NCBI GenBank assembly: GCA_963715055.1
Contig: CAVQRB010000012.1
Coordinates: 1,640-65,639 of the forward strand
DNA: 64,000 nt
Reading direction: 5' to 3'
From: an uncultured Alphaproteobacteria bacterium
GTDB taxonomy: Bacteria; Pseudomonadota; Alphaproteobacteria; Rhodobacterales; Rhodobacteraceae
Shown here: in pieces, positions 1,252-25,185 of the stretch
How positions within the stretch are numbered: position 1 is the first letter of the stretch
Layout: each line of letters starts with the position of its first letter
Notes under the pieces: generated by a model
Told to the model about the DNA's origin: nothing
The model's database searches: none
The model's input: the letters and a program-made list of their open reading frames with translations, nothing else
Made by a program: the position numbers and the translations under genes

Positions 1252-1638
1252 TCAGTTCAAGCGATTCCACGACTGCTTCGAGCAGATCAAGCCGCCGGCC
1301 ACACAGCCCGACAGCTTCATGCTGTTGCCGTTCAGAGCAATCTTGCCGAGGTAGATCTTGTCATTGCTCGGTCGCCAGACCTGCCCCTTGTAGTTGCCGT
1401 CGCCTTGTGGCGCCATGTCGATCACCAGCGTCTTGCCCAGGTTAGGTGACTGGTACTCCGACCCGTCCTTGAAGGTCCGTTCGATCTTGCCGCAGAAATT
1501 CGCCCCGCAGGGTGCGATGGCCACATGGGCGTAGGCACCTTCGTCTTCCTGTGTCTGCCAGAGCCCTTCGATCGGGTCTGCGCCTGCCACACCGGCGAAT
1601 GCGACCAGCAGGGCCGCGCTCAACATCATTCGTTTCAT
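1252..1638 (-). CDS. DUF2147-like periplasmic protein
   Basis: Start moved to MKRMML (GGAGGAGAAATC upstream); signal peptide ...AGVAGA; motifs GLWQT, GKI, YxGKIxxPxxGKxY-like repeat typical of DUF2147. Confidence 0.75.
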   Translation of the reverse strand: MKRMMLSAALLVAFAGVAGADPIEGLWQTQEDEGAYAHVAIAPCGANFCGKIERTFKDGSEYQSPNLGKTLVIDMAPQGDGNYKGQVWRPSNDKIYLGKIALNGNSMKLSGCVAGGLICSKQSWNRLN

Positions 1639-1775
1639 GATTTCTCCTCCCATGATTGGCGCGCAGACTGATGCCAAAGCGCGAATTCCTGCAAGCATGA
1701 CGGTACGTCGCGTTGCACAAGCCGTGGTCGCTGTGCAAAAAGCAGCCGGAACCTAGGAAACGATCGGAGCAGCGC

Positions 1776-2507
1776 ATGATCCTTTATCCCGCAATCGACC
1801 TCAAGGACGGTCAGGCCGTGCGGCTTGTGCATGGGGACATGGCGCGCTCGACAGTCTTCAACGACGATCCCGCGGCCCAGGCTCGGGCTTTCGTCGAAGC
1901 CGGCTGCGCCTGGCTGCATCTGGTCGATCTGAACGGCGCTTTTGCGGGCCAACCGGTGAATGCAGCGGCCGTGGAAGCGATTCTCAAGAGCTGCAAGGTG
2001 CCTGCACAACTGGGCGGTGGCATCCGGACCATGGCCACGATCGAGGCCTGGCTCGACAAGGGGCTGGCACGGGTCATCCTTGGCACCGTGGCGGTGGAGA
2101 ACCCCGACCTTGTACGCGAGGCCGCGAAGGCCTTTCCGGGTAAGGTCGCCGTCGGCATCGATGCGCGGAACGGGTTTGTCGCCACGAAAGGCTGGGCCGA
2201 GGAAACCGATGTGAAGGTCACGGATCTCGCGCGCTCCTTCGAGGACGCGGGCGTCGCGGCGATCATCTACACCGACATCCTGCGCGATGGCGCCATGGGC
2301 GGCCCGAACGTCGCGGCGACAGCGGAACTTGCGCGCAGCGTCTCGATTCCCGTCATCGCCTCGGGCGGCGTCGCTTCGCTCGAAGACCTGCTGACCTTGC
2401 GCGACACCGGGGTCATCTCGGGGGCCATTTCGGGCCGTGCGCTCTATGACGGGGCCATCGACCTGCGCAGGGCCTTGCAGGCACTGGCGGAACCGGCCCT
2501 GCCCTGA
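1776..2507 (+). CDS. hisA: ProFAR isomerase HisA
   Basis: [18 protein letters not shown]-terminus, GGGIR, ASGGV motifs; start chosen at internal Met of ORF 1713..2507. Confidence 0.9.
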
Positions 2508-2567
2508 GGTCGCGCGGGACGCTGCATTCGTCTTGCTCCCGAAAGCGCCGCCCGCTACACCGCCCAC

Positions 2568-3329
2568 ATGCTGAAGACCCGCATCATCCCCTGTCTTGAC
2601 GTGGCCGACGGCCGCGTGGTCAAGGGCGTCAACTTCGTCGACCTGCGCGATGCGGGTGATCCGGTGGATGCCGCCATCGCCTATGATGCCGCAGGGGCAG
2701 ATGAGCTCTGCTTTCTCGACATCACCGCCACCCATGAAAACCGTGCAACGATGTACGATGTGGTCACGCGCACGGCGGAACATTGCTATATTCCGCTGAC
2801 CGTGGGCGGTGGTGTCCGCACGGTCGCGGATGTGCGGGCCCTGCTGCTTGCGGGGGCCGACAAGGTGTCCTTCAACTCCGCAGCGGTGGCCAATCCGGAT
2901 GTGGTGGCCGAAGCCGCGGACCAGTTCGGCTCGCAGTGCATCGTGGTCGCCATCGACGCCAAGACCGTCAGCCCCGGCAAATGGGAGATCTTTACCCATG
3001 GCGGGCGGCGCGCGACCGGCATCGATGCCGTTGAATTCGCGAGAACCGTCGCAGCCAAGGGTGCGGGGGAAATCCTGCTCACCTCCATGGACCGCGACGG
3101 CACCCGCGCGGGCTTCAACCTGCCCCTCACAAGGGCGATTTCCGACGCCGTCAGCGTGCCGGTCATCGCTTCGGGCGGCGTGGGCACGCTCGATCATCTG
3201 GTCGAAGGCGTGACCTTGGGCGGGGCTTCCGCCGTTCTGGCCGCGTCGATCTTCCATTTCGGCGACTTCACGATCGCGCAAGCCAAGGCGCATATGGCCG
3301 CCGCCGGCATCCCGATGAGGCTGACATGA
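2568..3329 (+). CDS. hisF: Imidazole glycerol phosphate synthase cyclase subunit HisF
   Basis: [24 protein letters not shown] motifs. Confidence 0.95.
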
Positions 3330-3634
3330 CACTTCAGGACCTTTTTGCCACCATCGAGGCACGCAAGACCGCCGACCCGGCAAGCAGCTGGACAGCGCAG
3401 CTTCTGGCAAGGGGCCCGGAGAAATGCGCGGAGAAGTTCGGCGAGGAAGCGGTCGAGGCGATCATCGAAGCGGTGAAGGGCGACCAGGCGGCACTCACGA
3501 CGGAGGCGGCGGATGTGCTCTATCACCTCATGGTGATGCTGGTTGCGCGCGATGTCAGCTTGGACGCCGTGCTGGCTGAACTGGAGCGGCGGCAGCAGCA
3601 GTCGGGACTGAGCGAGAAAGCCGGACGCGCCTGA
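3326..3634 (+). CDS. hisE: Phosphoribosyl-ATP pyrophosphatase HisE
   Basis: ATGA overlap with hisF stop; EEAxExI...ADxLYHLMVxL motif. Confidence 0.9.
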
Positions 3635-15404: not shown

Positions 15405-15839
15405 ATTACTCCCTTGATGTGAGATGGACAGGATCGCCCGGTGATCGGACGTCTCCCTGTCAGCCTTTCAATACGGTCCCAGCAGGTGAAGACTGTCAAG
15501 GACTTCCTTGATGACTGCCGGCAGGCGATTTTGAGCAAGCGTGTCGCGATCCCGCCTCGCACGACAAACAGCGGGCTTCTTGGCCTTCATGGCAGGACCA
15601 CCCAGGATATCCGGAAAAAATCCTTTTTTCCCATAGGACTGGGCGAGAATCGCTTGCCGGGAAGCCGTCCATTCTCCGGCAGTTTCCCGCAGGGTTTCAA
15701 TGGCTTTGCATGGCGCAGATGACCAGAGGGGATCGCGCGGGTTGGCGTGCATGGTCTGAAACCGCAGGCATATCGCCGATCTTCTGGATGCGCGCGATCC
15801 AAGCGAAGAGCCTGCGAAAGAGGCGTAAGGGGCCGCCTG

Positions 15840-16510
15840 TGATCCGTGGATCGCAAAGGGGAACAGCGTTCTGGTGACCGGGCTCCAAAATGGTATTGGC
15901 GCACCCAAGGCGCTTGGCCTCTTCGCAAGAGGCCGGGGTGTTGCCGTCAGCCTTCTTGATCGCGGCGGAAGGAACGCCGCCATGGTCGCTGAACGTGAGG
16001 CGGCGGTTGCAATGGTCGTCGCGCTCGACGTAACCGACGCGGCCAGCATCGAATGCGGCTTGGCCGATGCGGTGTCGCGACCCGGCGGTCTCGACATCCT
16101 ATTGGATAGCGCGAGGGTCGGCTCCAAAGATATCCGGGGGATGATGTTCCCCAAGGATATGCCGCAGGGGGAGTTGACGTGAATAACGTGGGCGCTCGGC
16201 AGGTCATGCGGGCAGAAGGTCGTGGAACCGCTCCTAAGCCTGCAGCCTGATTGGGTGGATTGCAGCAGGGTTTTTTGGCACCTGTTCGGGACCGCCATGG
16301 ACGCTGGAAGCCTTTGTCGAATGCTGCCGCTCCGAGCTCTCGGATTTCGGTATCGGGTTCTGCCTCATCGAACCCTGGGGCATGCCAACGGCCTTTTTTG
16401 ACGGCATGAACGCGCCGAATGACGCAGCACACAAAACTGAATTTGCCACCTCGCCCGCGAAGTTCAATCGCGGCCTGACCGGGATGCTCGACCTGAGAGC
16501 AAGATAGGAA
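15840..16510 (+). pseudogene. Short-chain dehydrogenase/reductase pseudogene (no start codon, frameshifted)
   Basis: Frame A reads KGNSVLVTGLQNGIG...LDVTD...GGLDILL (SDR N-terminus) and stops at 16182. Another frame reads LEAFVECCRSELSDFGIGFCLIEPWGMPTAFFDG (SDR C-terminal region). Boundaries approximate. Confidence 0.45.
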
Positions 16511-16882
16511 AGACATGGAAACCTGCTCACCACAAGGCAAGGGCCTCCGACGGCATCGGTGCGGCGACGCCCCGGCATGATCAAGACCAAATTTGGCGGC
16601 GCAAGGACCATGCCTCGCGGTCAGAACCGCGCCTCGGCAAACCCTGGGCCGAAACGTTGACGCCATCACGCACGTCCGGCAGAGCCACGGGCTTGCGAAG
16701 GGAGCACGGGAAATGGAGCGAGCGCATCACCGCCAGACGGACACTCTCGCGGCGCATCGTGAAACACAGAAAAGGTGAAGGTTTGACCATCCCGCCACAG
16801 GATGAAACCGCCCTGCCCGTGCCAAGCCAGTCATCTGAGACAGCGCTGTCGGACGCATCTGGCGCATCGACCGTCTGGCGGT

Positions 16883-17311
16883 TCAGGCGGTAGTGCCTGC
16901 CTCGAGAACAAATCGCACTCCACCCAGGACCACGTCACGGTAGAGGTAGAAGCCCATCTCGAGCGGCGGCAGGTCATCCGGAAATACCATCGGTTCGACT
17001 TCAATGCCGGCCTGCGCCACGATCTTGTTGACCAGATCCGCGACCGCCTGCGGTTCAGCCAGAGCCACCTCGCCATCGAGCATGAAGTCCTCCCATTCCA
17101 ACAGGTCGAACATCACCTGTCCCAACTTGTAAAAGGGATGCGGTTCGAGGATTTCGATCCATCGGGCGGCCCGGTCCGGAAATGCCCGTCGGAAACCGAC
17201 GCCCAGTCGGGCCAGCGTGCAGGCCGCGCCACGCAACCCGTCGTTCAGAGGCATCAAGCGCATCAGCAGCGCCACATCGGTTTCGGGCAGGTCGTCGAAA
17301 GTCAGGGGCAT
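16883..17311 (-). CDS. Hypothetical protein (142 aa), last gene of polyprenyl-synthase operon
   Basis: ATG 1 nt after stop of upstream gene (17313); high GC3; no family recognised. Confidence 0.6.
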   Translation of the reverse strand: MPLTFDDLPETDVALLMRLMPLNDGLRGAACTLARLGVGFRRAFPDRAARWIEILEPHPFYKLGQVMFDLLEWEDFMLDGEVALAEPQAVADLVNKIVAQAGIEVEPMVFPDDLPPLEMGFYLYRDVVLGGVRFVLEAGTTA

Positions 17312-17312
17312 G

Positions 17313-18968
17313 TCAAAGCGCCCTCGTTGTCACATAATTGGAGATTTGTCGCAGTACCGCCTTGCCGGGCGTTTCCGGAATGAAACTGAGGTCGGCCTCG
17401 AACCGGCGCACGCCCTGGTTGGCCAGCCGGTCGGCATGGGCGATGGCATAATCGATTGATCCCACCTTTTGCATCGCCGCCAGCATTTCCTCGGCAAGGG
17501 CGAAGTCCTTTTGAATGCGCGGCAGGGCATTGATCTCGGTCATGCGGGTCCGGACATCTCGTCTTGCCTCGCGAAAGAGGTGAATCATCATCACCGTGCG
17601 CTTCCCTTCCAGCAAATCGCCCAAGGCTTCCTTCCCGTAAAGTGCGGTTTCGCCGATGAGGTTCAGAATATCGTCCTGGATCTGGAAAGCGATGCCTGTC
17701 AGCCGCAGGCTTTCATTGAACCGGTCCAATAGTGCCGGGTCGGTCACGCCGGCCGCCACGGCCCCGATGCGGCAGGGGCTGATGCAGGTGTACCAGCCGG
17801 TCTTCTTGGTGCTCATCCGGCTGTAGTCAGCATCCCGGGACGGCACGAAGTTTCGCCTGATCCACCCCAGTTCAATGGCCTGTCCCTCGACGGTTTCGCG
17901 GCACATGTGCAGGATCTCGTGGATGATCCCAAGGGTTCGAGCCAAGCCGATGGTGCCGAGATTGGACAGCGTCATATCGACGGCAAAAAGATGCATGGCG
18001 TCGCCCGCGTTGACTGCCAGCCCGATGCCATGCGCCTCGTGCAGGGTCGGAAGGCCGCGGCGATGGGTGCTCTCATCGGCGATGTCATCATGCACCAGAA
18101 AGCCGTTGTGAAACATCTCGAGCGCCGCGGCCGCGCGCACCCCGTCCTCCATCCGCCCGCCCAGAGCCATGCAGGTGGCGATCACCAGTGTCGGACGCAG
18201 CCCTTTGCCTTCGCGAACCACATAGTCTTTCATGAGCGCATAAAGATCGCGCTGCGGCGGCTTGGCGGGGATCAGGCGCAGGATTTCCTCGACCACGCGG
18301 GTCTTGCAGATGTCCATGGTCATCAGCAGGTCGTTGTCGAAGACATCGTCGAGCGCCTGCCAGCTTTCGGCCTGCCTGCCGTTCCAGAGCGACCGCGCGG
18401 GTGCCAGCACCGGCTCCTGTCGCTCCAGCAGGTCCACGCCCGCCGGGTGGCGTTTATCCAACCAGTCGAGGGCAGGCCAAGCCGCGTCGTCCCAATAAGC
18501 TGCGCCGCGTTTGCGAGGCCGTGCCGCGGGCATTGCACCCGGCTCCCAGATACCGGCCCTGGAATCGCGGTAGTCGCTCCAGAGCGCCTGTACCACCCGC
18601 AGCCCGGACGCCCGTTGCGACAGCAGCCGGAAACAGCGCCAGACTGCCAACAGGTCCTCGCGCGAGCCGCGCATATCCAGCGACTGCTCGAGGGCCTGGT
18701 CGGAAGGCCGCTGGATCGCATCGAACAGCAGCATCAGGGCCCTGTCGTCAAAATGTACGGCGACATCGCTCGCGGTGTCTGTCGCCTGTTCGGCAGGAAC
18801 GACCTTCAGCGTACTCTGCCGCGCCTGCATCAGTGAGGAGGAACCATCACCGAACATCAGGTGCAGGCGAATCTGGCCCAATTCACGGGCCGCGGCCGCG
18901 ATGATCGCGGGCGCGCGCTTCGACAATGCGGCGATGGTGCCGTCAAGGACATCCGCGCCGTTAATCAC
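17313..18968 (-). CDS. Fusion protein: N-terminal SCP2-like domain + C-terminal polyprenyl diphosphate synthase
   Basis: C-terminal half has GKGLRP, FLVHDDIADESTHRRG (first Asp-rich motif), FQIQDDILNL (second motif), EGKRT. Start set at GTG 18968 (GGGAGGGG SD; GTGATTAA overlap with upstream stop) rather than ATG 19082. Confidence 0.8.
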   Translation of the reverse strand: MINGADVLDGTIAALSKRAPAIIAAAARELGQIRLHLMFGDGSSSLMQARQSTLKVVPAEQATDTASDVAVHFDDRALMLLFDAIQRPSDQALEQSLDMRGSREDLLAVWRCFRLLSQRASGLRVVQALWSDYRDSRAGIWEPGAMPAARPRKRGAAYWDDAAWPALDWLDKRHPAGVDLLERQEPVLAPARSLWNGRQAESWQALDDVFDNDLLMTMDICKTRVVEEILRLIPAKPPQRDLYALMKDYVVREGKGLRPTLVIATCMALGGRMEDGVRAAAALEMFHNGFLVHDDIADESTHRRGLPTLHEAHGIGLAVNAGDAMHLFAVDMTLSNLGTIGLARTLGIIHEILHMCRETVEGQAIELGWIRRNFVPSRDADYSRMSTKKTGWYTCISPCRIGAVAAGVTDPALLDRFNESLRLTGIAFQIQDDILNLIGETALYGKEALGDLLEGKRTVMMIHLFREARRDVRTRMTEINALPRIQKDFALAEEMLAAMQKVGSIDYAIAHADRLANQGVRRFEADLSFIPETPGKAVLRQISNYVTTRAL

Positions 18969-20019
18969 CGCCGGCCCCTCCCGAGAATTCCACGATGCCT
19001 CTGGTCTCGAGGCGGAAAGAGCGACCGTTGACGCGACCCGACATCTCGCAGGGACCGACGACTTCGTGCACGTTGAAGGCATTCAGGCTGGTTTCCGACG
19101 GAATCACGATCCGCACCGCCCAGTCGGCATCGAAATCCAGCACCACCCGGTCGTCGCCCTGCCGCGCCATGATGACAAGCCGCCGCGGCAAGGCCGATAC
19201 CGGCGCCACGCCGAGCAGGCCCGCGAGGGGCGGCGCCATCGACACCCGGTCACGGTCCATCTCGCCGCGCACCGCGAAACTGACGCAGCGGCGCGGGAAA
19301 TGCCGCACCATGCGCCCCTTGTGCCACAGCATGAAGGAGGCGGTCGCCTCGGCGGGCCTCGCGGCCGGACGAATGAAGGTAAATACACCCGCCCATTCCG
19401 GCGGCTCTCCCGCCTCGGCGTTCAGATCGTTGGCAAAGCCGAAGACCCATTCACCCAGATCAGGCCAGCCCCAGCGGCCGCGCACCCGTTCATGATACCC
19501 CACAAGATCCACCTGCGTCCTGCCCTTCGGCGTGACCCAATCGCCGACTGCCGTCACACCGGTTTCGGACTGCCACCGCAGATGTTGGTGGCGCGCGAAA
19601 ACCGCCGTCTGGCTGGTGCAGTTGCGGCTGGTGCGTGTCAACGCGAGATCAACGGCCGGGGACCCATCAGCGGCAGCAATGCTCAGACGCCCGGCCACCC
19701 CATGTGCATGGGGTCGCGTGAAGGCCGACCAGGGAGGCCGCCGGGTGGCGGCGTTGAACTGGCTGGTATGCCAGGGCCCCTCGCCGTCATGCAGCACGAG
19801 AATGGTGGCAAAGCGCTCGGTGCCCGGCGCTTCCCCTTCGGCCGGGCCGAGCCAGGATGAATTGGCGACCAGCGCCTTTTGCCCGTCGCGTGACAGAAAA
19901 GCGTAATGCAGCCAGCGGCGGTCAATCGGGTCGGTCAAGGGGCTGGCAGGAAAAGGCCCGGCAGGTCCGAGCCCAGTGGGCCGGGAAGACACCGCTTCGG
20001 AATACCGAAAGGACTGCAT
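18961..20019 (-). CDS. Hypothetical Trp/Gly-rich protein (352 aa); faint resemblance to CrtC/AttH-type hydratase fold
   Basis: AGGAG SD before ATG 20019; high GC3; motif GYHERVRGRWGW. Family assignment is only an impression. Confidence 0.6.
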   Translation of the reverse strand: MQSFRYSEAVSSRPTGLGPAGPFPASPLTDPIDRRWLHYAFLSRDGQKALVANSSWLGPAEGEAPGTERFATILVLHDGEGPWHTSQFNAATRRPPWSAFTRPHAHGVAGRLSIAAADGSPAVDLALTRTSRNCTSQTAVFARHQHLRWQSETGVTAVGDWVTPKGRTQVDLVGYHERVRGRWGWPDLGEWVFGFANDLNAEAGEPPEWAGVFTFIRPAARPAEATASFMLWHKGRMVRHFPRRCVSFAVRGEMDRDRVSMAPPLAGLLGVAPVSALPRRLVIMARQGDDRVVLDFDADWAVRIVIPSETSLNAFNVHEVVGPCEMSGRVNGRSFRLETRGIVEFSGGAGGD

Positions 20020-20157: not shown

Positions 20158-20967
20158 GTGAAACCGAAAAAGACTTTGCCTTCAAAAGCTTCCGCCCGGT
20201 TCACCGCGATTGCGATCGAACCGCCCGATGCTCTGAAGCCGATTGCCATCAAGACTCACCGCGAGCTCTTCGCGAAGTCGCGTGAGATGGCCGAACGGGT
20301 CCGGGATAACCCGGAGTTCAGCGTGATGTTCCTGTCGAACCCTGTCCTTGCGCTCGAGGCCTATGGCATCAAGCTCAGTCCGGAATTGCGCCACCATGTC
20401 ATGGATACCCTGCGTCATCCGCCCAAGCTGCGTGCCCGCCGCGCGGAACTCGAAGCCAGCCTGGAGGAGGCGCTGGGTGAAAAAGCCAAGCCCACCGATG
20501 AGGCATGGATGGCCGATCTGGTATTCCGCAAACGCAAGATCGAGCCCCGTGACATCGGCAGCGGCGAGCCTGCCTACAAGCCGGCGCTGAATGCGGCCTC
20601 GGTCGAGCGTCTGCAAAAGGCGCGCCCCAAGGCCACGAAGCGCTACAGCGGCCAGCGCCGGTCGAAAGTGCAATTCTCGCTGACCGTCGCACCGCCTTCC
20701 AACACACTGCGACGGATGGACCTCGATGCCGATGTACCGGATATGAAACCGGCCGCGAAAGCCCCCAAGTCGCTGACGCTTGAAGAGGCCTGGTTCTACA
20801 AGGACGACGCCATCGTGAAGGAGGCGGTCGAGTTGGGCCAGATCATGCGCCGCGGCTTCCCCTTCAGAACGCCCGCCGAGTTTCGCGCCATCGCCAAGGG
20901 TGAAAAGGTCGACGCCTTCCGGCGCTTTGTCCGCGCGGTCAGGATCCGCGAGGTGACGCCGGAGTGA
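20158..20967 (+). CDS. Orphan protein A (269 aa), very basic, with NHLP/nitrile-hydratase-alpha-like helical motif
   Basis: GTG start with GGGAGG SD 5 nt upstream (ORF 19906..20967 trimmed); motif DNPEFSVMFLSNPVLALEAYGIKLSPEL. Confidence 0.65.
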   Translation: MKPKKTLPSKASARFTAIAIEPPDALKPIAIKTHRELFAKSREMAERVRDNPEFSVMFLSNPVLALEAYGIKLSPELRHHVMDTLRHPPKLRARRAELEASLEEALGEKAKPTDEAWMADLVFRKRKIEPRDIGSGEPAYKPALNAASVERLQKARPKATKRYSGQRRSKVQFSLTVAPPSNTLRRMDLDADVPDMKPAAKAPKSLTLEEAWFYKDDAIVKEAVELGQIMRRGFPFRTPAEFRAIAKGEKVDAFRRFVRAVRIREVTPE

Positions 20968-22697
20968 GCAACACATCGAATTTTGACTATTGCGTGCAAT
21001 TCGGCATCGAGGCCGTGCGCGAGGTCTTTCACCTCGCCCTCAAGAATGAAGATCTTTTCCCCCACAACCTGCCGCCGCTGACCCGCGATTTCGGCGGCCA
21101 TACCGCCACTGTGCGCGTGCGCCTGCTTGACGACATGACCGACAGCGCGGATCTGTCTTTCCAGGACGAAAAGCACATCCTCTTCGATCTGCCCATCGAG
21201 ATCGCGGTCGAAACACCCGACGCCCCGGACCCGTCGCTGGCGACGGTGACACTGCAATCCACCGTCCGGGCTCCCGGTGCTCTGGCGACCTGGCCGGTAT
21301 CTGGAGACGATCAGCTTGGACTGGAGTTTTCAGGCATCACGGCGGCAGATGTCGAGGTGCCCGCGCTCACCGGCCTGCCCACACTGGATGCCGCACGCTT
21401 TGTCGCCGCGTTGCATACGAAATACGAAACCCTGCCGAGCCACAGTTTCACCCTCGGCGGCAACACGCTGAACATCTACGACGGGACACGGGACGCAACG
21501 CTGATCCCGGGCAACAAGGCCGGTAACCCCGAAATCACTGCGGCGCTCGAAAACCACGGCGGCAAGCAGTACCTCAGGATCACCATGCCACTGCACGCCA
21601 ATGTCACGGTGCCCGTCACCTATGCAAGCTATGGCACGGCGACGCTTTGGCGCGAGGTCGTGACCGGGGGCGGCACGGTCCGGGTGCTGATGGAGACCGA
21701 GCCCGCGGACGACCCGCTTGCCACGACCATCGTCTTTGACAACGGCGGCATCGGCGGCATCATCGCCGACCAGCTCGAGCCCTTGCTGATCACTCAGATC
21801 GCAGCTTTCGCCCCGGTCGAGGAACCCTGGTTCGACGAAGACAGCGCGCGCGCCCTGATCCGGCAGGAAACCGCAGGCTACCTCGCGCCGCGCCGCTTTC
21901 CCTTCTACACGCCACAATCGGGCGATTCCGAGGTTGCGCTGGAGACGCCGGTCGGCTTCCTGCTGCTGGCCAATGAAACGCTCGCGATCCTGATGAACCG
22001 GCGGACCGGCACCGCGGCGGATGACGCAGCACCCGATGACTTTCGAGGGGCGCACATCCTTGCACTGGCGCTCAGCCGGGCGGTTCTGGACGAAACCATC
22101 GCCGATGCCATCGCAGAGGAATTTCCAGGCCTTGCCAGCGGCGGTCACCGGATCGAAACGGACGAAGGCGACGCCACGCTGCAATCGCTGTCGGTCACCC
22201 CATCAGACCCCGGCAGCCACGATGAAAGCGAGGGGCATCTCTGGGTCTCGGGCGAGGCCGAGGTGCACATAGACTGCTGGCCGGATCCCGACGTCAGCTT
22301 TGACGGCCCGATCTTCCTGCGCCTTGATGTGACGGAAACCGACACGGAATGCAGCGCTGTGTTCCGCGCCGAGATGGGCGAATTCGATGCCGGCCAGAGC
22401 TGTTGCGACGTTTTCGTCGATTTGATCATCCCGATCGTCGGCTGGATCATGCTGGGTGTCATCGAGTCCATGATCGACCGGGTCGGCGGCGAGCTGGCCG
22501 AGGAATTCGCCGGGGCACAGGAACGTCAGATGCAACCCATCCCGACCTTCGTGGTCGGCGTGGCCGAACTGCAGGCCTGCCTTGAATCGGTGCAGACCTC
22601 ATCGCAAGGACTGGTGATGCCGGGCAAGCTGCGCATCCGCCGCGAAGGAACGAGTTTCGAAGACCTGCTTGAAGGCGGCGACCTGCCGCGCCCCTGA
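20964..22697 (+). CDS. Orphan protein B (577 aa), acidic, one C-terminal hydrophobic helix
   Basis: GTGA start/stop overlap with A; high GC3 throughout; no family recognised. Confidence 0.75.
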   Translation: MSNTSNFDYCVQFGIEAVREVFHLALKNEDLFPHNLPPLTRDFGGHTATVRVRLLDDMTDSADLSFQDEKHILFDLPIEIAVETPDAPDPSLATVTLQSTVRAPGALATWPVSGDDQLGLEFSGITAADVEVPALTGLPTLDAARFVAALHTKYETLPSHSFTLGGNTLNIYDGTRDATLIPGNKAGNPEITAALENHGGKQYLRITMPLHANVTVPVTYASYGTATLWREVVTGGGTVRVLMETEPADDPLATTIVFDNGGIGGIIADQLEPLLITQIAAFAPVEEPWFDEDSARALIRQETAGYLAPRRFPFYTPQSGDSEVALETPVGFLLLANETLAILMNRRTGTAADDAAPDDFRGAHILALALSRAVLDETIADAIAEEFPGLASGGHRIETDEGDATLQSLSVTPSDPGSHDESEGHLWVSGEAEVHIDCWPDPDVSFDGPIFLRLDVTETDTECSAVFRAEMGEFDAGQSCCDVFVDLIIPIVGWIMLGVIESMIDRVGGELAEEFAGAQERQMQPIPTFVVGVAELQACLESVQTSSQGLVMPGKLRIRREGTSFEDLLEGGDLPRP

Positions 22698-22730
22698 CGC
22701 CGGGGCCTGAACGCGTGAAAGGAGAGGACG

Positions 22731-24110
22731 ATGCCAACCGAAAGAGGCTTTGTGGAAACGCTCGGGGTAGGACGCGCCGGGCTTGTCGAAGCGGCGGTGC
22801 TGCACGGCGACGGGTCACGAGCGATCTATACCGTCGCCGATCTGGATGCCGACCCGGAACGCTTCAACGAAAGGCTGTCGAAATTCGGCATCCTGCGCGA
22901 CGCGATGGACCGGGCCGAACCGGTCGAGATCGAATTCGACCGATCCGATGGCTTTCGCCCGGTCGAAAGCGTCAAGCGGCTGACCCGGGATGCGCTGGAA
23001 AGGCCCGAGGAAACCTCGGTCGCCTCGGGCATGGTGGTCGGGCTTTCGGTATCCTTCGAGGTGAACATCAATCCCTTTGGCGAAGCGTCGGATCGCGCCA
23101 TGCTCGCCTTGCTGACCGGCACCGGCGTGGTCAACTTCGTCATCCGCCTGCAGGCGCCCGAACGCCATGCGGCCATGGCGATGGTCGACATCGCCCGTGA
23201 CGCGCAGGCCTCCGGTGCAAGCGTGACAGTGACCTTCGGCACCAAGAACCGCGAGGTCACGCAGATCGCGCGCGACGATCTGGCCGGCGCCAGCGGCCAG
23301 GAGACCGAGCAGTTTTCGGCCTTTGTGGAGGAGATCACCCATACACCGGTCTCCAACCTGATGCTGGTCGCCGTGACCACCGCGCCCGAGTTCGTCTTGG
23401 AGGGAAATGTTGTCCCGCTGGAGGGTTTTACGCCGGAGCTGCGCAATCTGGCGGTGGTCTACAACTCGCCGGAATACCTGCTGCTTCAAGCTGCGCTGCG
23501 CGACAAATTGCGGGTGGAACTGATGACCCTGCGACCGCGCGAGCGCGACGATCCGGACAAACAGCCGGATGAACCGGTCGGCGACGAAATCCCGCGCAAT
23601 GATGTGACGGGGATAGCGCGCTATGCCGAGGCGAAACCGGCCGCAATGAGCGGCGACTCAAAGCTCCGGACGGAAGCGATGGGCAAAGCCACGCGGGCCA
23701 CCTACCTTCTGCGGGGCGCCACCCTTCAGCACGCTCTCTGCTCTGCCAGCCGGCCCGTCTGGATCGAGGTCAACCGGCGCGCGCTGGACCTGGGGCCGGA
23801 CGAGGAATGCATCGAAGGCCTGCCCTCCAGCGACATGCGTCCGCAGACCATCCGCGAGTTGAACCTGCCTTACCGCGCCGCGTGGATCGGCTATGGCTGC
23901 TTCAACCACGGCGTCTACCGCATCCAGATCGCCACGGATCGCGATGTCACCGTGTTTGTCGATGGCGAGGAAATCTGCCTGCATCGCGACAAGGCGGGCG
24001 ACACGGTCTTCGGCCATGCCTGCCTCGAAGGCGACCATGAAATCCGGATCGTGTTTGAGAATTGGAAATGCAAGGCGAAGTTTGATATGGACGTGTATCG
24101 CATCCGCTGA
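22731..24110 (+). CDS. Orphan protein C (459 aa)
   Basis: GGAGAGGA SD before ATG; high GC3; C-terminal approx 90 aa look like a beta-sandwich (GVYRIQIATDRDVTVFVDGEEI...); no family recognised. Confidence 0.75.
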   Translation: MPTERGFVETLGVGRAGLVEAAVLHGDGSRAIYTVADLDADPERFNERLSKFGILRDAMDRAEPVEIEFDRSDGFRPVESVKRLTRDALERPEETSVASGMVVGLSVSFEVNINPFGEASDRAMLALLTGTGVVNFVIRLQAPERHAAMAMVDIARDAQASGASVTVTFGTKNREVTQIARDDLAGASGQETEQFSAFVEEITHTPVSNLMLVAVTTAPEFVLEGNVVPLEGFTPELRNLAVVYNSPEYLLLQAALRDKLRVELMTLRPRERDDPDKQPDEPVGDEIPRNDVTGIARYAEAKPAAMSGDSKLRTEAMGKATRATYLLRGATLQHALCSASRPVWIEVNRRALDLGPDEECIEGLPSSDMRPQTIRELNLPYRAAWIGYGCFNHGVYRIQIATDRDVTVFVDGEEICLHRDKAGDTVFGHACLEGDHEIRIVFENWKCKAKFDMDVYRIR

Positions 24111-24127
24111 CCGGAAAGGAGTTCCGC

Positions 24128-24631
24128 ATGGCCGACGAAGAGGTCGAGGAGACCAGAACCATCATTGTGACCCAGCGCTGTGCTGAGAGCTTTGCGCTGT
24201 CCGGCAGCGAGCAGCATCCGCCAATGCAGCACCGGGTGCAGGCCGATATGGTCCACCACACCGACAAACCGGTCGTCCACATGCATCTGTGGAACGAGGA
24301 TTGCGTGGGCAAGCTGGACGTGCAGCACAGGTCCAGCACCGACACGGAACACCCGTTTCACGTAGCGCACCGTTTCGACACGCCGCATGCCCAGACCCAT
24401 GAGATGCAAACCTCGCTGGCAGCACCGATCCACCACGCCCTGCAGATGCGCACACCGTTGCAGATAAGGTTCTGCAATACCTGGCAGGTGGCATCGGATT
24501 ATTCGGTTCAGGTGGCCCTGCGCGGGCGGCCTTTCCTCGACATCCGCCTGACCGGCGCGACTGTGGCCACGCCGCAGCCCTGCCCTGACGACGACTGCGC
24601 ACCCGATCCGAAGGCGGCACAGCATCCATGA
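24128..24631 (+). CDS. Orphan protein D (167 aa), His/Cys-rich
   Basis: GGAAAGGAG SD; 15 His and 5 Cys in 167 aa by my count; high GC3. Confidence 0.6.
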   Translation: MADEEVEETRTIIVTQRCAESFALSGSEQHPPMQHRVQADMVHHTDKPVVHMHLWNEDCVGKLDVQHRSSTDTEHPFHVAHRFDTPHAQTHEMQTSLAAPIHHALQMRTPLQIRFCNTWQVASDYSVQVALRGRPFLDIRLTGATVATPQPCPDDDCAPDPKAAQHP

Positions 24632-25185
24632 GCGAGCAAAAGCAAGACCCGCGTCCCGGCGAGGCGGTTGGCGAGTTGGTGTCCTCGGCGCTGAAACTCT
24701 CTGCGGCCGTCGTGCAGACCGTGGCGGAGGCCGCAACCGGCAAGCCGCAGGCAAACCGCCCCGGAGACACGCCTCTGCAGTCGATGATCCGGCATGGCAC
24801 CACTGCCGCAAGCAGCATCCTGACCACGGTCATGAGCGCCACCCGCGAGGGGTCGGCCGCCGAACCGGCAGCGGCGCCGGTGAACGCGCCGCCGCGCGCC
24901 CCTCGCGTGGCGCGCGGCTCCAGCCTTCGTCTGCCGTTGTCGGTGGACAATCTGCGCGATACCGTCATGCAGGACATCGAGCCGCGCTTGGTCGACGCCG
25001 AAACACCGACACCGTTGCATGTGAGTTTCAAGCCGGAAAAACTGACCATCGCACCGAATGATTTCGAGAAGCTGACGGTCCGCGTGGACGTACCCGAGGA
25101 CACTCCCCCCGGGCGATACACTTTTGCCTTCACCCTGCCGGGTCAGGAAACCCAGCCGGTGTCGCTCTCGGTCGAGGTCGTGTGA
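24628..25185 (+). CDS. Orphan protein E (185 aa): Ala-rich helical N-terminus, Pro/Ala linker, beta-sandwich-like tail
   Basis: ATGA overlap with D; tail ...LTVRVDVPEDTPPGRYTFAFTLPGQETQPVSLSVEVV. Confidence 0.65.
   Translation: MSEQKQDPRPGEAVGELVSSALKLSAAVVQTVAEAATGKPQANRPGDTPLQSMIRHGTTAASSILTTVMSATREGSAAEPAAAPVNAPPRAPRVARGSSLRLPLSVDNLRDTVMQDIEPRLVDAETPTPLHVSFKPEKLTIAPNDFEKLTVRVDVPEDTPPGRYTFAFTLPGQETQPVSLSVEVV

Follow-up and report, generated by a model that had tools for sequence, protein, structure and literature searches.

Prenyl diphosphate synthases are normally free-standing enzymes, and the segregation and delivery of their products is a recurring question. A stretch of 64,000 nucleotides (nt) from an uncultured alphaproteobacterium of the Rhodobacteraceae (GenBank assembly GCA_963715055.1, contig CAVQRB010000012.1, positions 1,640 to 65,639; the window) encodes a polyprenyl synthase behind a long N-terminal extension. 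What is this extension, which type of synthase follows it, and what may both do in one protein? The initial annotation, made from the DNA letters alone, had read an SCP2 sterol-carrier-type domain and a eukaryote-type catalytic motif. The fusion itself proved real: a single reading frame of 551 amino acids (aa) holds a complete synthase after a conserved extension.

Two domains in one reading frame

The GTG start of the gene (18968-18966) and the TAA stop (18963-18961) of the upstream 352-aa gene overlap as GTGATTAA, and a GGGAGG Shine-Dalgarno-like run lies 8-14 nt upstream of the GTG. In an alignment of 28 sequences, the homologues begin at residues 1-5 of the 551-aa form. A longer form of 589 aa from ATG 19082 was rejected. 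It overlaps the upstream gene, and the in-frame stretch 18969-19082 has a non-coding base pattern in the synthase frame, with a GC content at second codon positions of 0.76 exceeding that at third positions (GC3) of 0.66. Residues 1-141 have a GC3 of 0.79, compared to 0.77 in the synthase part. Comparison with the orthologue of locus L008 gave 72 synonymous and 57 non-synonymous codon changes over 210 aligned N-terminal codons, and among the 235 N-terminal positions, 44 do not vary across 18 sequences from several phyla. Judged by GC3, the excess of synonymous changes and the invariant positions, the N-terminal half is coding and under purifying selection. The extension comprises about 212 aa, because the Pfam match starts at residue 242, the alignment to the geranylgeranyl diphosphate (GGPP) synthase of Thermus at residue 232 (Thermus residue 20) and the first helix of the synthase fold spans residues 214-232 in the AlphaFold model. 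This fits the first estimate of about 230 aa.

The AlphaFold models of the full-length protein and of residues 1-235 agree on an alpha/beta domain in residues 1-141 with the element order H-H-E-E-E-E-H-H-E-H-H (H, helix; E, strand). Helices 4-18 and 20-30 precede strands 34-39, 44-50, 53-58 and 69-73; helices 75-82 and 90-96, strand 97-100 and helices 103-120 and 124-136 complete the domain. The predicted local distance difference test (pLDDT) score was 79.6 for the full-length model and mostly 85-95 in residues 1-141, with a dip to 53-67 at residues 81-100. A Foldseek search of the PDB with the model of residues 1-235 returned SCP2-fold proteins at all ranks from 1 to 46, with full coverage of the domain (90-139 aligned columns). 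The best match was UbiJ-SCP2 of E. coli (6h6p; E 3e-6, template modelling (TM) score 0.64 over 115 columns). Others were the SCP2 proteins of Yarrowia, human, rabbit and insects, Thermus TT1886 and the SCP2-like C-terminal domain of alkylsulfatases; target-normalised TM scores of the free-standing SCP2 entries were about 0.43-0.64. The five-stranded sheet under helices that defines the SCP2 fold is present in the model and matched over the whole domain. These 46 consecutive matches bear out the initial SCP2 guess at fold level, and the models support an SCP2-type fold for the N-terminal part.

At sequence level, the signal for an SCP2 domain is faint. The N-terminal half of the window protein had no match in Pfam, NCBIfam or PHROGs. 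Among 18 family members scanned singly, two matched PF14864 (Alkyl_sulf_C), faintly, with a best E of 4.5e-4. Searches of PDB sequences with the single N-terminal domain and with its family profile yielded chance-level matches only. A phmmer search of 1.8 billion representatives gave 29 matches, all from the same family and with no other fusion partners.

The N-terminal domain is joined to the synthase by a linker of low model confidence (residues 142-213), in which W164-P-A-L-D..L..R173, R192, W195, G197, W203, D211 and D213 are invariant. The invariant Trp and Arg positions suggest that the linker is a docking segment for a partner or a domain.

The catalytic identity is clear. PF00348 (polyprenyl_synt) matched residues 242-480 with an E of 2.4e-53 and 181.4 bits, well above the cut-off of 27. 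The full set of trans-isoprenyl diphosphate synthase motifs is present: GKGLRP (K255, R258), the first aspartate-rich motif DDIAD with RRG (294-305), GQ (362-363), KT (389-390), the second aspartate-rich motif DDILN (432-436), GK (445-446) and KRT (456-458). The first motif lies in FLVHDDIADESTHRRG, with D294, D295 and D298 followed by R303 and R304. The second lies in FQIQDDILNL, with D432, D433 and N436; its last Asp is replaced by Asn, as in the Thermus GGPP synthase. Phe290 is located at position -4 before the first Asp and Gly289 at -5. All motifs that the initial annotation had quoted, including its N-terminal strings, were thereby recovered. In the 28-sequence alignment, the substrate-binding motifs GKGLRP, DDIAD...RRG, GQ, KT, DDxLN, GK and KRT are all invariant, as is Phe290, and Gly289 is at least 90% conserved. 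From this invariance, an active chain-elongating enzyme is expected.

The closest solved structure is the GGPP synthase of Thermus thermophilus (1wmw), both by sequence (E 3e-53, 184 bits) and by fold (TM 0.90, 36% identity); the archaeal GGPP synthases 1wy0 and 5jfq come after it among the PDB matches. None of the NCBIfam equivalogs reached its cut-off for the synthase. The ranking below the cut-offs was led by the methanogen IdsA (175 bits), followed by a family-2 encapsulin cargo polyprenyl transferase (167.8), GGPP synthase (149) and then farnesyl diphosphate (FPP) and long-chain synthases; the first three are short-chain enzymes. The genome encodes three other PF00348 proteins, two with the motif DDLPC[MF]D (DDLPCMD, DDLPCFD) and one of the long-chain type, so that the fusion is an extra copy and the fourth paralogue. 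The organism itself is probably a phototroph that makes carotenoids and obtains GGPP for them from a separate supply.

Enzyme type and chain length

Type III GGPP synthases (human GGPS1, yeast Bts1) have a DDxxN second motif and an uninserted first motif, like the fused protein, and the initial annotation had taken DDxxN as the mark of these eukaryotic enzymes. The relatives of the catalytic part do not bear this out. They were collected with residues 250-540 alone as the query, and full-length fused proteins were left out by length. The search yielded first fragments of the fused family (57-100% identity) and then about 75 stand-alone enzymes of 345-365 aa with 46-52% identity to the query, from Bathyarchaeota, Gemmatimonadaceae, Anaerolineae and many metagenome bins. 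FQ[IV]QDDxLN occurs in all 117 proteins found, and Phe at -4 with Ala, Gly or Ser at -5 in 115 of them. The Thermus enzyme carries FQIVDDVLNL (DDVLN) in the PDB sequence alignment, although it is bacterial. Neither the best 60 sequence matches in the PDB nor the best 50 fold matches include a eukaryotic GGPP synthase. Since DDxxN is common to all 117 relatives and the Thermus enzyme, it is a trait of a large prokaryotic clade and not a eukaryotic signature. The same reading holds for Phe at -4.

None of the classical types fits overall. The type III motif is present as DDILN, which is not diagnostic as all 117 prokaryotic relatives share it; positions -4 and -5 are occupied by small residues in type III enzymes but, at -4, by an invariant Phe290 in the fused family, and the best PDB matches are Thermus and archaeal instead of eukaryotic GGPP synthases. 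The two-residue insertion of type II (DDxxxxD) is lacking in the uninserted DDIAD-ESTH-RRG. Type I combines an aromatic residue at -5 with a DDxxD second motif, as in the Pyrococcus enzyme 1wy0 with Tyr at -5 and DDVLD; the fused protein instead has Gly at -5, its aromatic residue at -4 and a DDxxN second motif. In terms of the classical scheme the enzyme is a mosaic that departs from each of types I, II and III.

The phylogenetic placement proposed at the outset was made with a maximum-likelihood tree of 47 sequences, which is limited by long branches and contains no eukaryotic sequences. The fused proteins form a single clade with an SH-aLRT support of 100. This clade is nested within the DDxxN clade of the Thermus GGPP synthase and the stand-alone enzymes (SH-aLRT 99), apart from the Pyrococcus GGPP synthase and the three paralogues of the genome. 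In this tree the fusion has a single origin.

The Phe at -4, already seen in the first reading, bears on the chain length. The product length had been called not obvious; this Phe, judged by analogy, suggests that the chain is short, probably C20. The G-F-L-V-H-D-D segment presumably corresponds to F-F-L-V-A-D-D of avian FPP synthase without the Phe at -5, and the F112A mutant of the avian enzyme reportedly makes mainly GGPP. The Thermus GGPP synthase is a C20 enzyme, and one stand-alone relative (L066) has a geranylgeranyl reductase as its neighbour. The combination of Phe at -4 and Gly at -5 makes C20 (GGPP) the likeliest product, with a fair though not high degree of confidence; C15 or C25 is possible instead.

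Thermus GGPP synthase and the approximately 350-aa enzymes of the FQIQDDxLN clade thus resemble the fused protein in fold, in the uninserted DDxxD first motif, the DDxLN second motif and all binding motifs for isopentenyl diphosphate (IPP) and diphosphate, and they share its clade in the tree. They differ in three respects. Thermus-type enzymes have no N-terminal domain, whereas the fusion adds about 212 residues with the SCP2-like domain and the linker. The Thermus enzyme has Trp at -5 and Val at -4, in contrast to Gly and Phe in the fused family. The genomic context of the fusion is an orphan cluster, compared to a carotenoid or lipid operon for Thermus-type enzymes.

Two loci of stand-alone relatives were also inspected. 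One relative (L066:7001-15068) is encoded with a HEAT-repeat protein, a geranylgeranyl reductase (GGR_cat), an ArsA-type ATPase and a GHMP (mevalonate-type) kinase, an archaeal-lipid-like gene set on a bacterial-looking contig. Another, from Gemmatimonadaceae with 48% identity (L065:7001-12845), heads seven consecutive genes of 122-351 aa without Pfam matches. This run is another orphan operon built on the DDxxN synthase clade.

A rare and widely spread gene cluster

The fusion is conserved in relatives. Its full length (100%) is matched by more than 120 protein clusters of 540-597 aa, with identities of 60-85%. When a pattern scan was run on 185,579 species, each represented by one genome, it detected 44 loci, which is a lower bound. 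Carriers belong to at least eight phyla: Alpha-, Beta- and Gammaproteobacteria, Acidobacteriota, Chloroflexota, Actinomycetota, Methylomirabilota/NC10, Gemmatimonadota, Planctomycetota and Binatia. Cultured carriers include Rhodobacter sp. SW2 and Phenylobacterium sp. LjRoot225. Of 301 sampled genomes from the order of the window (113 genera), the window's own was the only one with the N-terminal domain. The high identity across phyla, together with the extreme patchiness, indicates a horizontal spread of the cluster.

One candidate for a natural split of the two domains was rejected. At L062:5363-6987, a 206-aa reading frame with the N-terminal domain is followed by a 328-aa synthase frame, and the interruption is a frameshift in the conserved segment D.DL...RV..EI.R.IP. 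The locus is a broken or mis-assembled fused gene. It is located on a long-read metagenome contig, and several transposase genes (IS110, DDE_3, Transposase_mut) follow it.

A description of an SCP2-synthase fusion or of the gene cluster was not found in the literature. The architecture, which the initial annotation had called unfamiliar, appears to be undescribed.

Features of the window around the fusion gene (coordinates in the window)
Feature	Position	Strand	Details
SCP2-synthase fusion gene	17313-18968	-	translates to 551 aa
SCP2-like alpha/beta domain	18546-18968	-	residues 1-141; AlphaFold models and Foldseek
Linker region	18330-18545	-	residues 142-213; low model confidence, pLDDT 34-60
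trans-Isoprenyl diphosphate synthase domain	17313-18329	-	residues 214-551 and stop codon; PF00348
Upstream protein	18961-20019	-	352 aa; family not matched; 8-nt overlap, translationally coupled to the synthase
Acidic downstream protein	16883-17311	-	142 aa; start codon directly after the synthase stop
Divergent orphan operon A-E	20158-25185	+	five genes: A 269, B 577, C 459, D 167 and E 185 aa

Wherever the contig allows, the fusion is encoded in the core order 352-aa gene, synthase, 142-aa gene. The 352-aa gene lies directly upstream in 42 of the 44 loci, which is every locus whose contig reaches that far, with 40-77% identity. The 142-aa gene lies downstream in 42 loci as well, and the contigs of the remaining two end too early. 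The start/stop overlap recurs in L001 and L002. No membrane segment was predicted for the three core proteins. The 352-aa protein had no match in Pfam, NCBIfam, PADLOC or PHROGs, and its 29-sequence profile had none among PDB sequences; for the 142-aa protein, PADLOC and PHROGs gave no match and the family profile no convincing match among PDB sequences.

A CrtC/AttH-type hydratase was considered for the 352-aa protein and has no support at sequence level, as a profile-profile comparison with nine genuine CrtC from related genomes gave a probability of 0.8%. A genuine CrtC (hydroxyneurosporene synthase, 209 bits) is encoded elsewhere in the own genome (L052, contig C1:346705-347205), and 9 of 30 sampled relatives have one.

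The operon A-E accompanies the core in most genomes. By tblastn, all five genes are present in 23 of the 44 loci, some of them on 8 shorter contigs and none in 13 loci, 7 of which form the divergent group L043-L047, L050 and L051. L001 and L002 have all five genes as well. The orientation is divergent in most loci; the operon lies downstream in the Acidobacteriota loci L027 and L029. In Pfam and NCBIfam, proteins C and E gave weak matches below the thresholds only; D was scanned against PADLOC and PHROGs alone. Family profiles of B and C had no match among PDB sequences. A defence or phage origin was rejected, as none of the eight cluster proteins matched PADLOC or PHROGs. The sole strongly hydrophobic segment in these eight proteins is VFVDLIIPIVGWIMLGVIE (window 22410-22466, residues 483-501 of protein B). 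It is located near the C-terminus of the 577-aa protein, adjoins an invariant CC pair and could be a membrane-insertion or lipid-contact element.

Precursor genes are part of several loci. In about 14 loci from several phyla, the A-E operon has an IspH/LytB paralogue (HMBPP reductase) at its outer end (L001:312-1643; L010, L015, L019, L021-L024, L031, L035, L036, L040, L042 and L049 at positions of about 1300-3600). Some copies are unusually long, with 433-458 aligned aa. The window has no IspH paralogue. In the divergent sub-clade L044-L047 and L051, A-E genes are absent, and the core is preceded by another pair of orphan genes of about 236 and 275 aa (L047:1240-3753 for this upstream region). 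Three of its loci encode an IDI-like Nudix protein, and one (L047) also a second, ordinary polyprenyl synthase of 387 aa. In L047 an intact short-chain dehydrogenase/reductase gene directly follows the 142-aa homologue. A tblastn search with this protein found no match in window positions 15405-16882, where no convincing intact gene was detected between the gene of an ABC-transporter binding protein and the 142-aa gene.

Carrier, docking module or sensor

A prenyl synthase with a built-in SCP2 carrier that feeds a private pool to co-encoded soluble partners is the interpretation given slightly better than even chances. The gene product would be a soluble enzyme of two modules. Its C-terminal module (about residues 214-551) is a catalytically complete 'Thermus-type' synthase, which would condense IPP onto allylic diphosphates and most likely stop at C20. 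The N-terminal module (residues 1-141) would bind the product, or the next intermediate, by its hydrophobic prenyl tail and keep this pool apart from the other prenyl diphosphate pools of the cell. The lipid would then be handed to the co-encoded 352-aa and 142-aa proteins. The three-gene unit would be the core that supplies chains to a dedicated isoprenoid-lipid pathway, spread horizontally, whose later steps may be carried out by the neighbouring A-E operon. Core proteins without a membrane segment fit the need for a soluble carrier.

Known systems provide a parallel. UbiJ, like UbiT, is an SCP2-domain accessory factor of the soluble-protein ubiquinone pathway, and its SCP2 domain holds polyprenyl intermediates in the soluble ubiquinone metabolon. 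It was also noted long ago that product release by some prenyl synthases depends on a lipid-binding factor. The UbiJ structures (6h6n, 6h6o, 6h6p) are the best structural match of the N-terminal domain; sequence identity is only 15-20%, and no relationship was found at sequence level. UbiJ is a separate, unfused protein with a C-terminal coiled coil, whereas the SCP2 fold is fused to the enzyme here. An SCP2-fold domain on an enzyme for hydrophobic substrates is also found in SCPx thiolase, in MFE-2/HSD17B4 with its SCP-2L domain (1ikt) and in the alkylsulfatases SdsA1 and Pisa1 (2cfz, 2yhe). The SCP2 domains of all three groups appeared in the fold search, and PF14864 is the sole sequence-level signal. 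These enzymes carry the SCP2 domain at the C-terminus, whereas the fused protein has it at the N-terminus, and their catalytic domains are unrelated. To our knowledge, no SCP2 domain fused to a trans-isoprenyl diphosphate synthase has been known, and a literature search did not find another one.

Several observations weigh against a carrier. The SCP2 fold can be purely structural, and the C-terminal domain of the Eis acetyltransferase follows at Foldseek ranks 47-50. Asp and Arg are numerous among the conserved residues of the N-terminal domain, and a simple hydrophobic pocket would not usually show this; the putative lipid cavity and lipid binding of the domain are deduced from the likeness of the fold. 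For GGPP, which is amphipathic, the need for a carrier is not obvious. The chain length was assigned by the analogy to avian F112A. Finally, the conserved linker has low confidence in the model, which makes any arrangement of the domains tentative.

The main rival is that the N-terminal region serves for docking or assembly. Its SCP2-fold domain and Trp/Arg linker would tether the synthase to the 352-aa protein, the 142-aa protein or a structure built by A-E, without lipid carriage and comparable to a cargo-targeting domain. This is rather unlikely, and the two functions are not mutually exclusive. The strict co-encoding of the partners speaks for docking, as do invariant charged and aromatic residues (D41, D83, D98, R100, R103, R111, R119, R124, W164, W195, W203) and the existence of SCP2-fold domains with a structural role such as that of Eis. 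The second-best NCBIfam match, the family-2 encapsulin cargo enzyme NF041169 (E 4e-49), represents a class of isoprenyl diphosphate synthases with N-terminal targeting extensions. Its extension is a disordered targeting peptide, whereas that of the fused protein is a folded SCP2-like domain in the model. The fused protein itself was rejected as an encapsulin cargo polyprenyl transferase: it scores 168 bits where the cut-off is 450, and no encapsulin shell model matched any of the five scanned neighbours (all but the products of the 142-aa and 167-aa genes). Docking is further disfavoured by the first 46 structural matches, which are mostly lipid carriers besides the SCP2-like domain of alkylsulfatases, and by the presence of the core without the A-E operon in seven loci.

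A regulatory lipid sensor is less probable still. The N-terminal domain would bind the end product or a membrane lipid and switch the synthase allosterically, with no channelling. An SCP2 fold and a flexible, conserved linker between the domains would suit such a switch, and the flux through a fourth paralogue may need separation from the carotenoid and quinone supply. Direct evidence for a sensor is absent, we know of no precedent for SCP2 domains as allosteric regulators of isoprenyl diphosphate synthases, and the tight translational coupling to the partners favours a role in a pathway.

An annotation artefact, in which translation starts near Met215 or Met217 to give a synthase of about 335 aa and the upstream 640 nt are non-coding or a separate gene, had been named at the outset as the finding that would overturn the fusion and is in accord with several family entries annotated as 320-420 aa from near that point (e.g., P0121, P0163, P0170, P0177), but is effectively refuted by the homologue alignment, the N-terminal GC3 and codon changes, the 44 residues invariant across phyla, the confident fold model, more than 100 full-length gene calls of 540-597 aa, the GTG start with its Shine-Dalgarno-like sequence and overlap with the upstream stop, and the frameshift that explains the 'short' entry examined (L062).

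The carrier interpretation can be extended to the whole cluster, as a tentative proposal that is possible but doubtful. The fusion and the 352-aa and 142-aa proteins would form a soluble metabolon that makes an isoprenoid lipid from its own precursor supply by the IspH and IDI paralogues that many of the clusters have. The SCP2 domain would pass the nascent chain to a new prenyl-modifying enzyme, the 352-aa beta-rich protein, and A-E would store or transport the product. If true, the cluster would amount to a complete isoprenoid-lipid system that moves horizontally and of which nothing but the synthase fold is characterised.

For annotation, the consequences are immediate. The current names 'polyprenyl synthetase family protein' and 'GGPP synthase type II' hide the extra domain and misstate the type, and DDxxN is not usable as a eukaryotic signature in motif-based typing. 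As a natural union of synthase and carrier-fold domain, the protein is a direct model for product channelling and could serve as a part for terpenoid engineering. The fusion combines two well-known parts and is not a new kind of enzyme. The synthase is the one interpretable handle on a rare, widely transferred cluster of otherwise unmatched proteins, and its main value is as an entry point to this orphan cluster.

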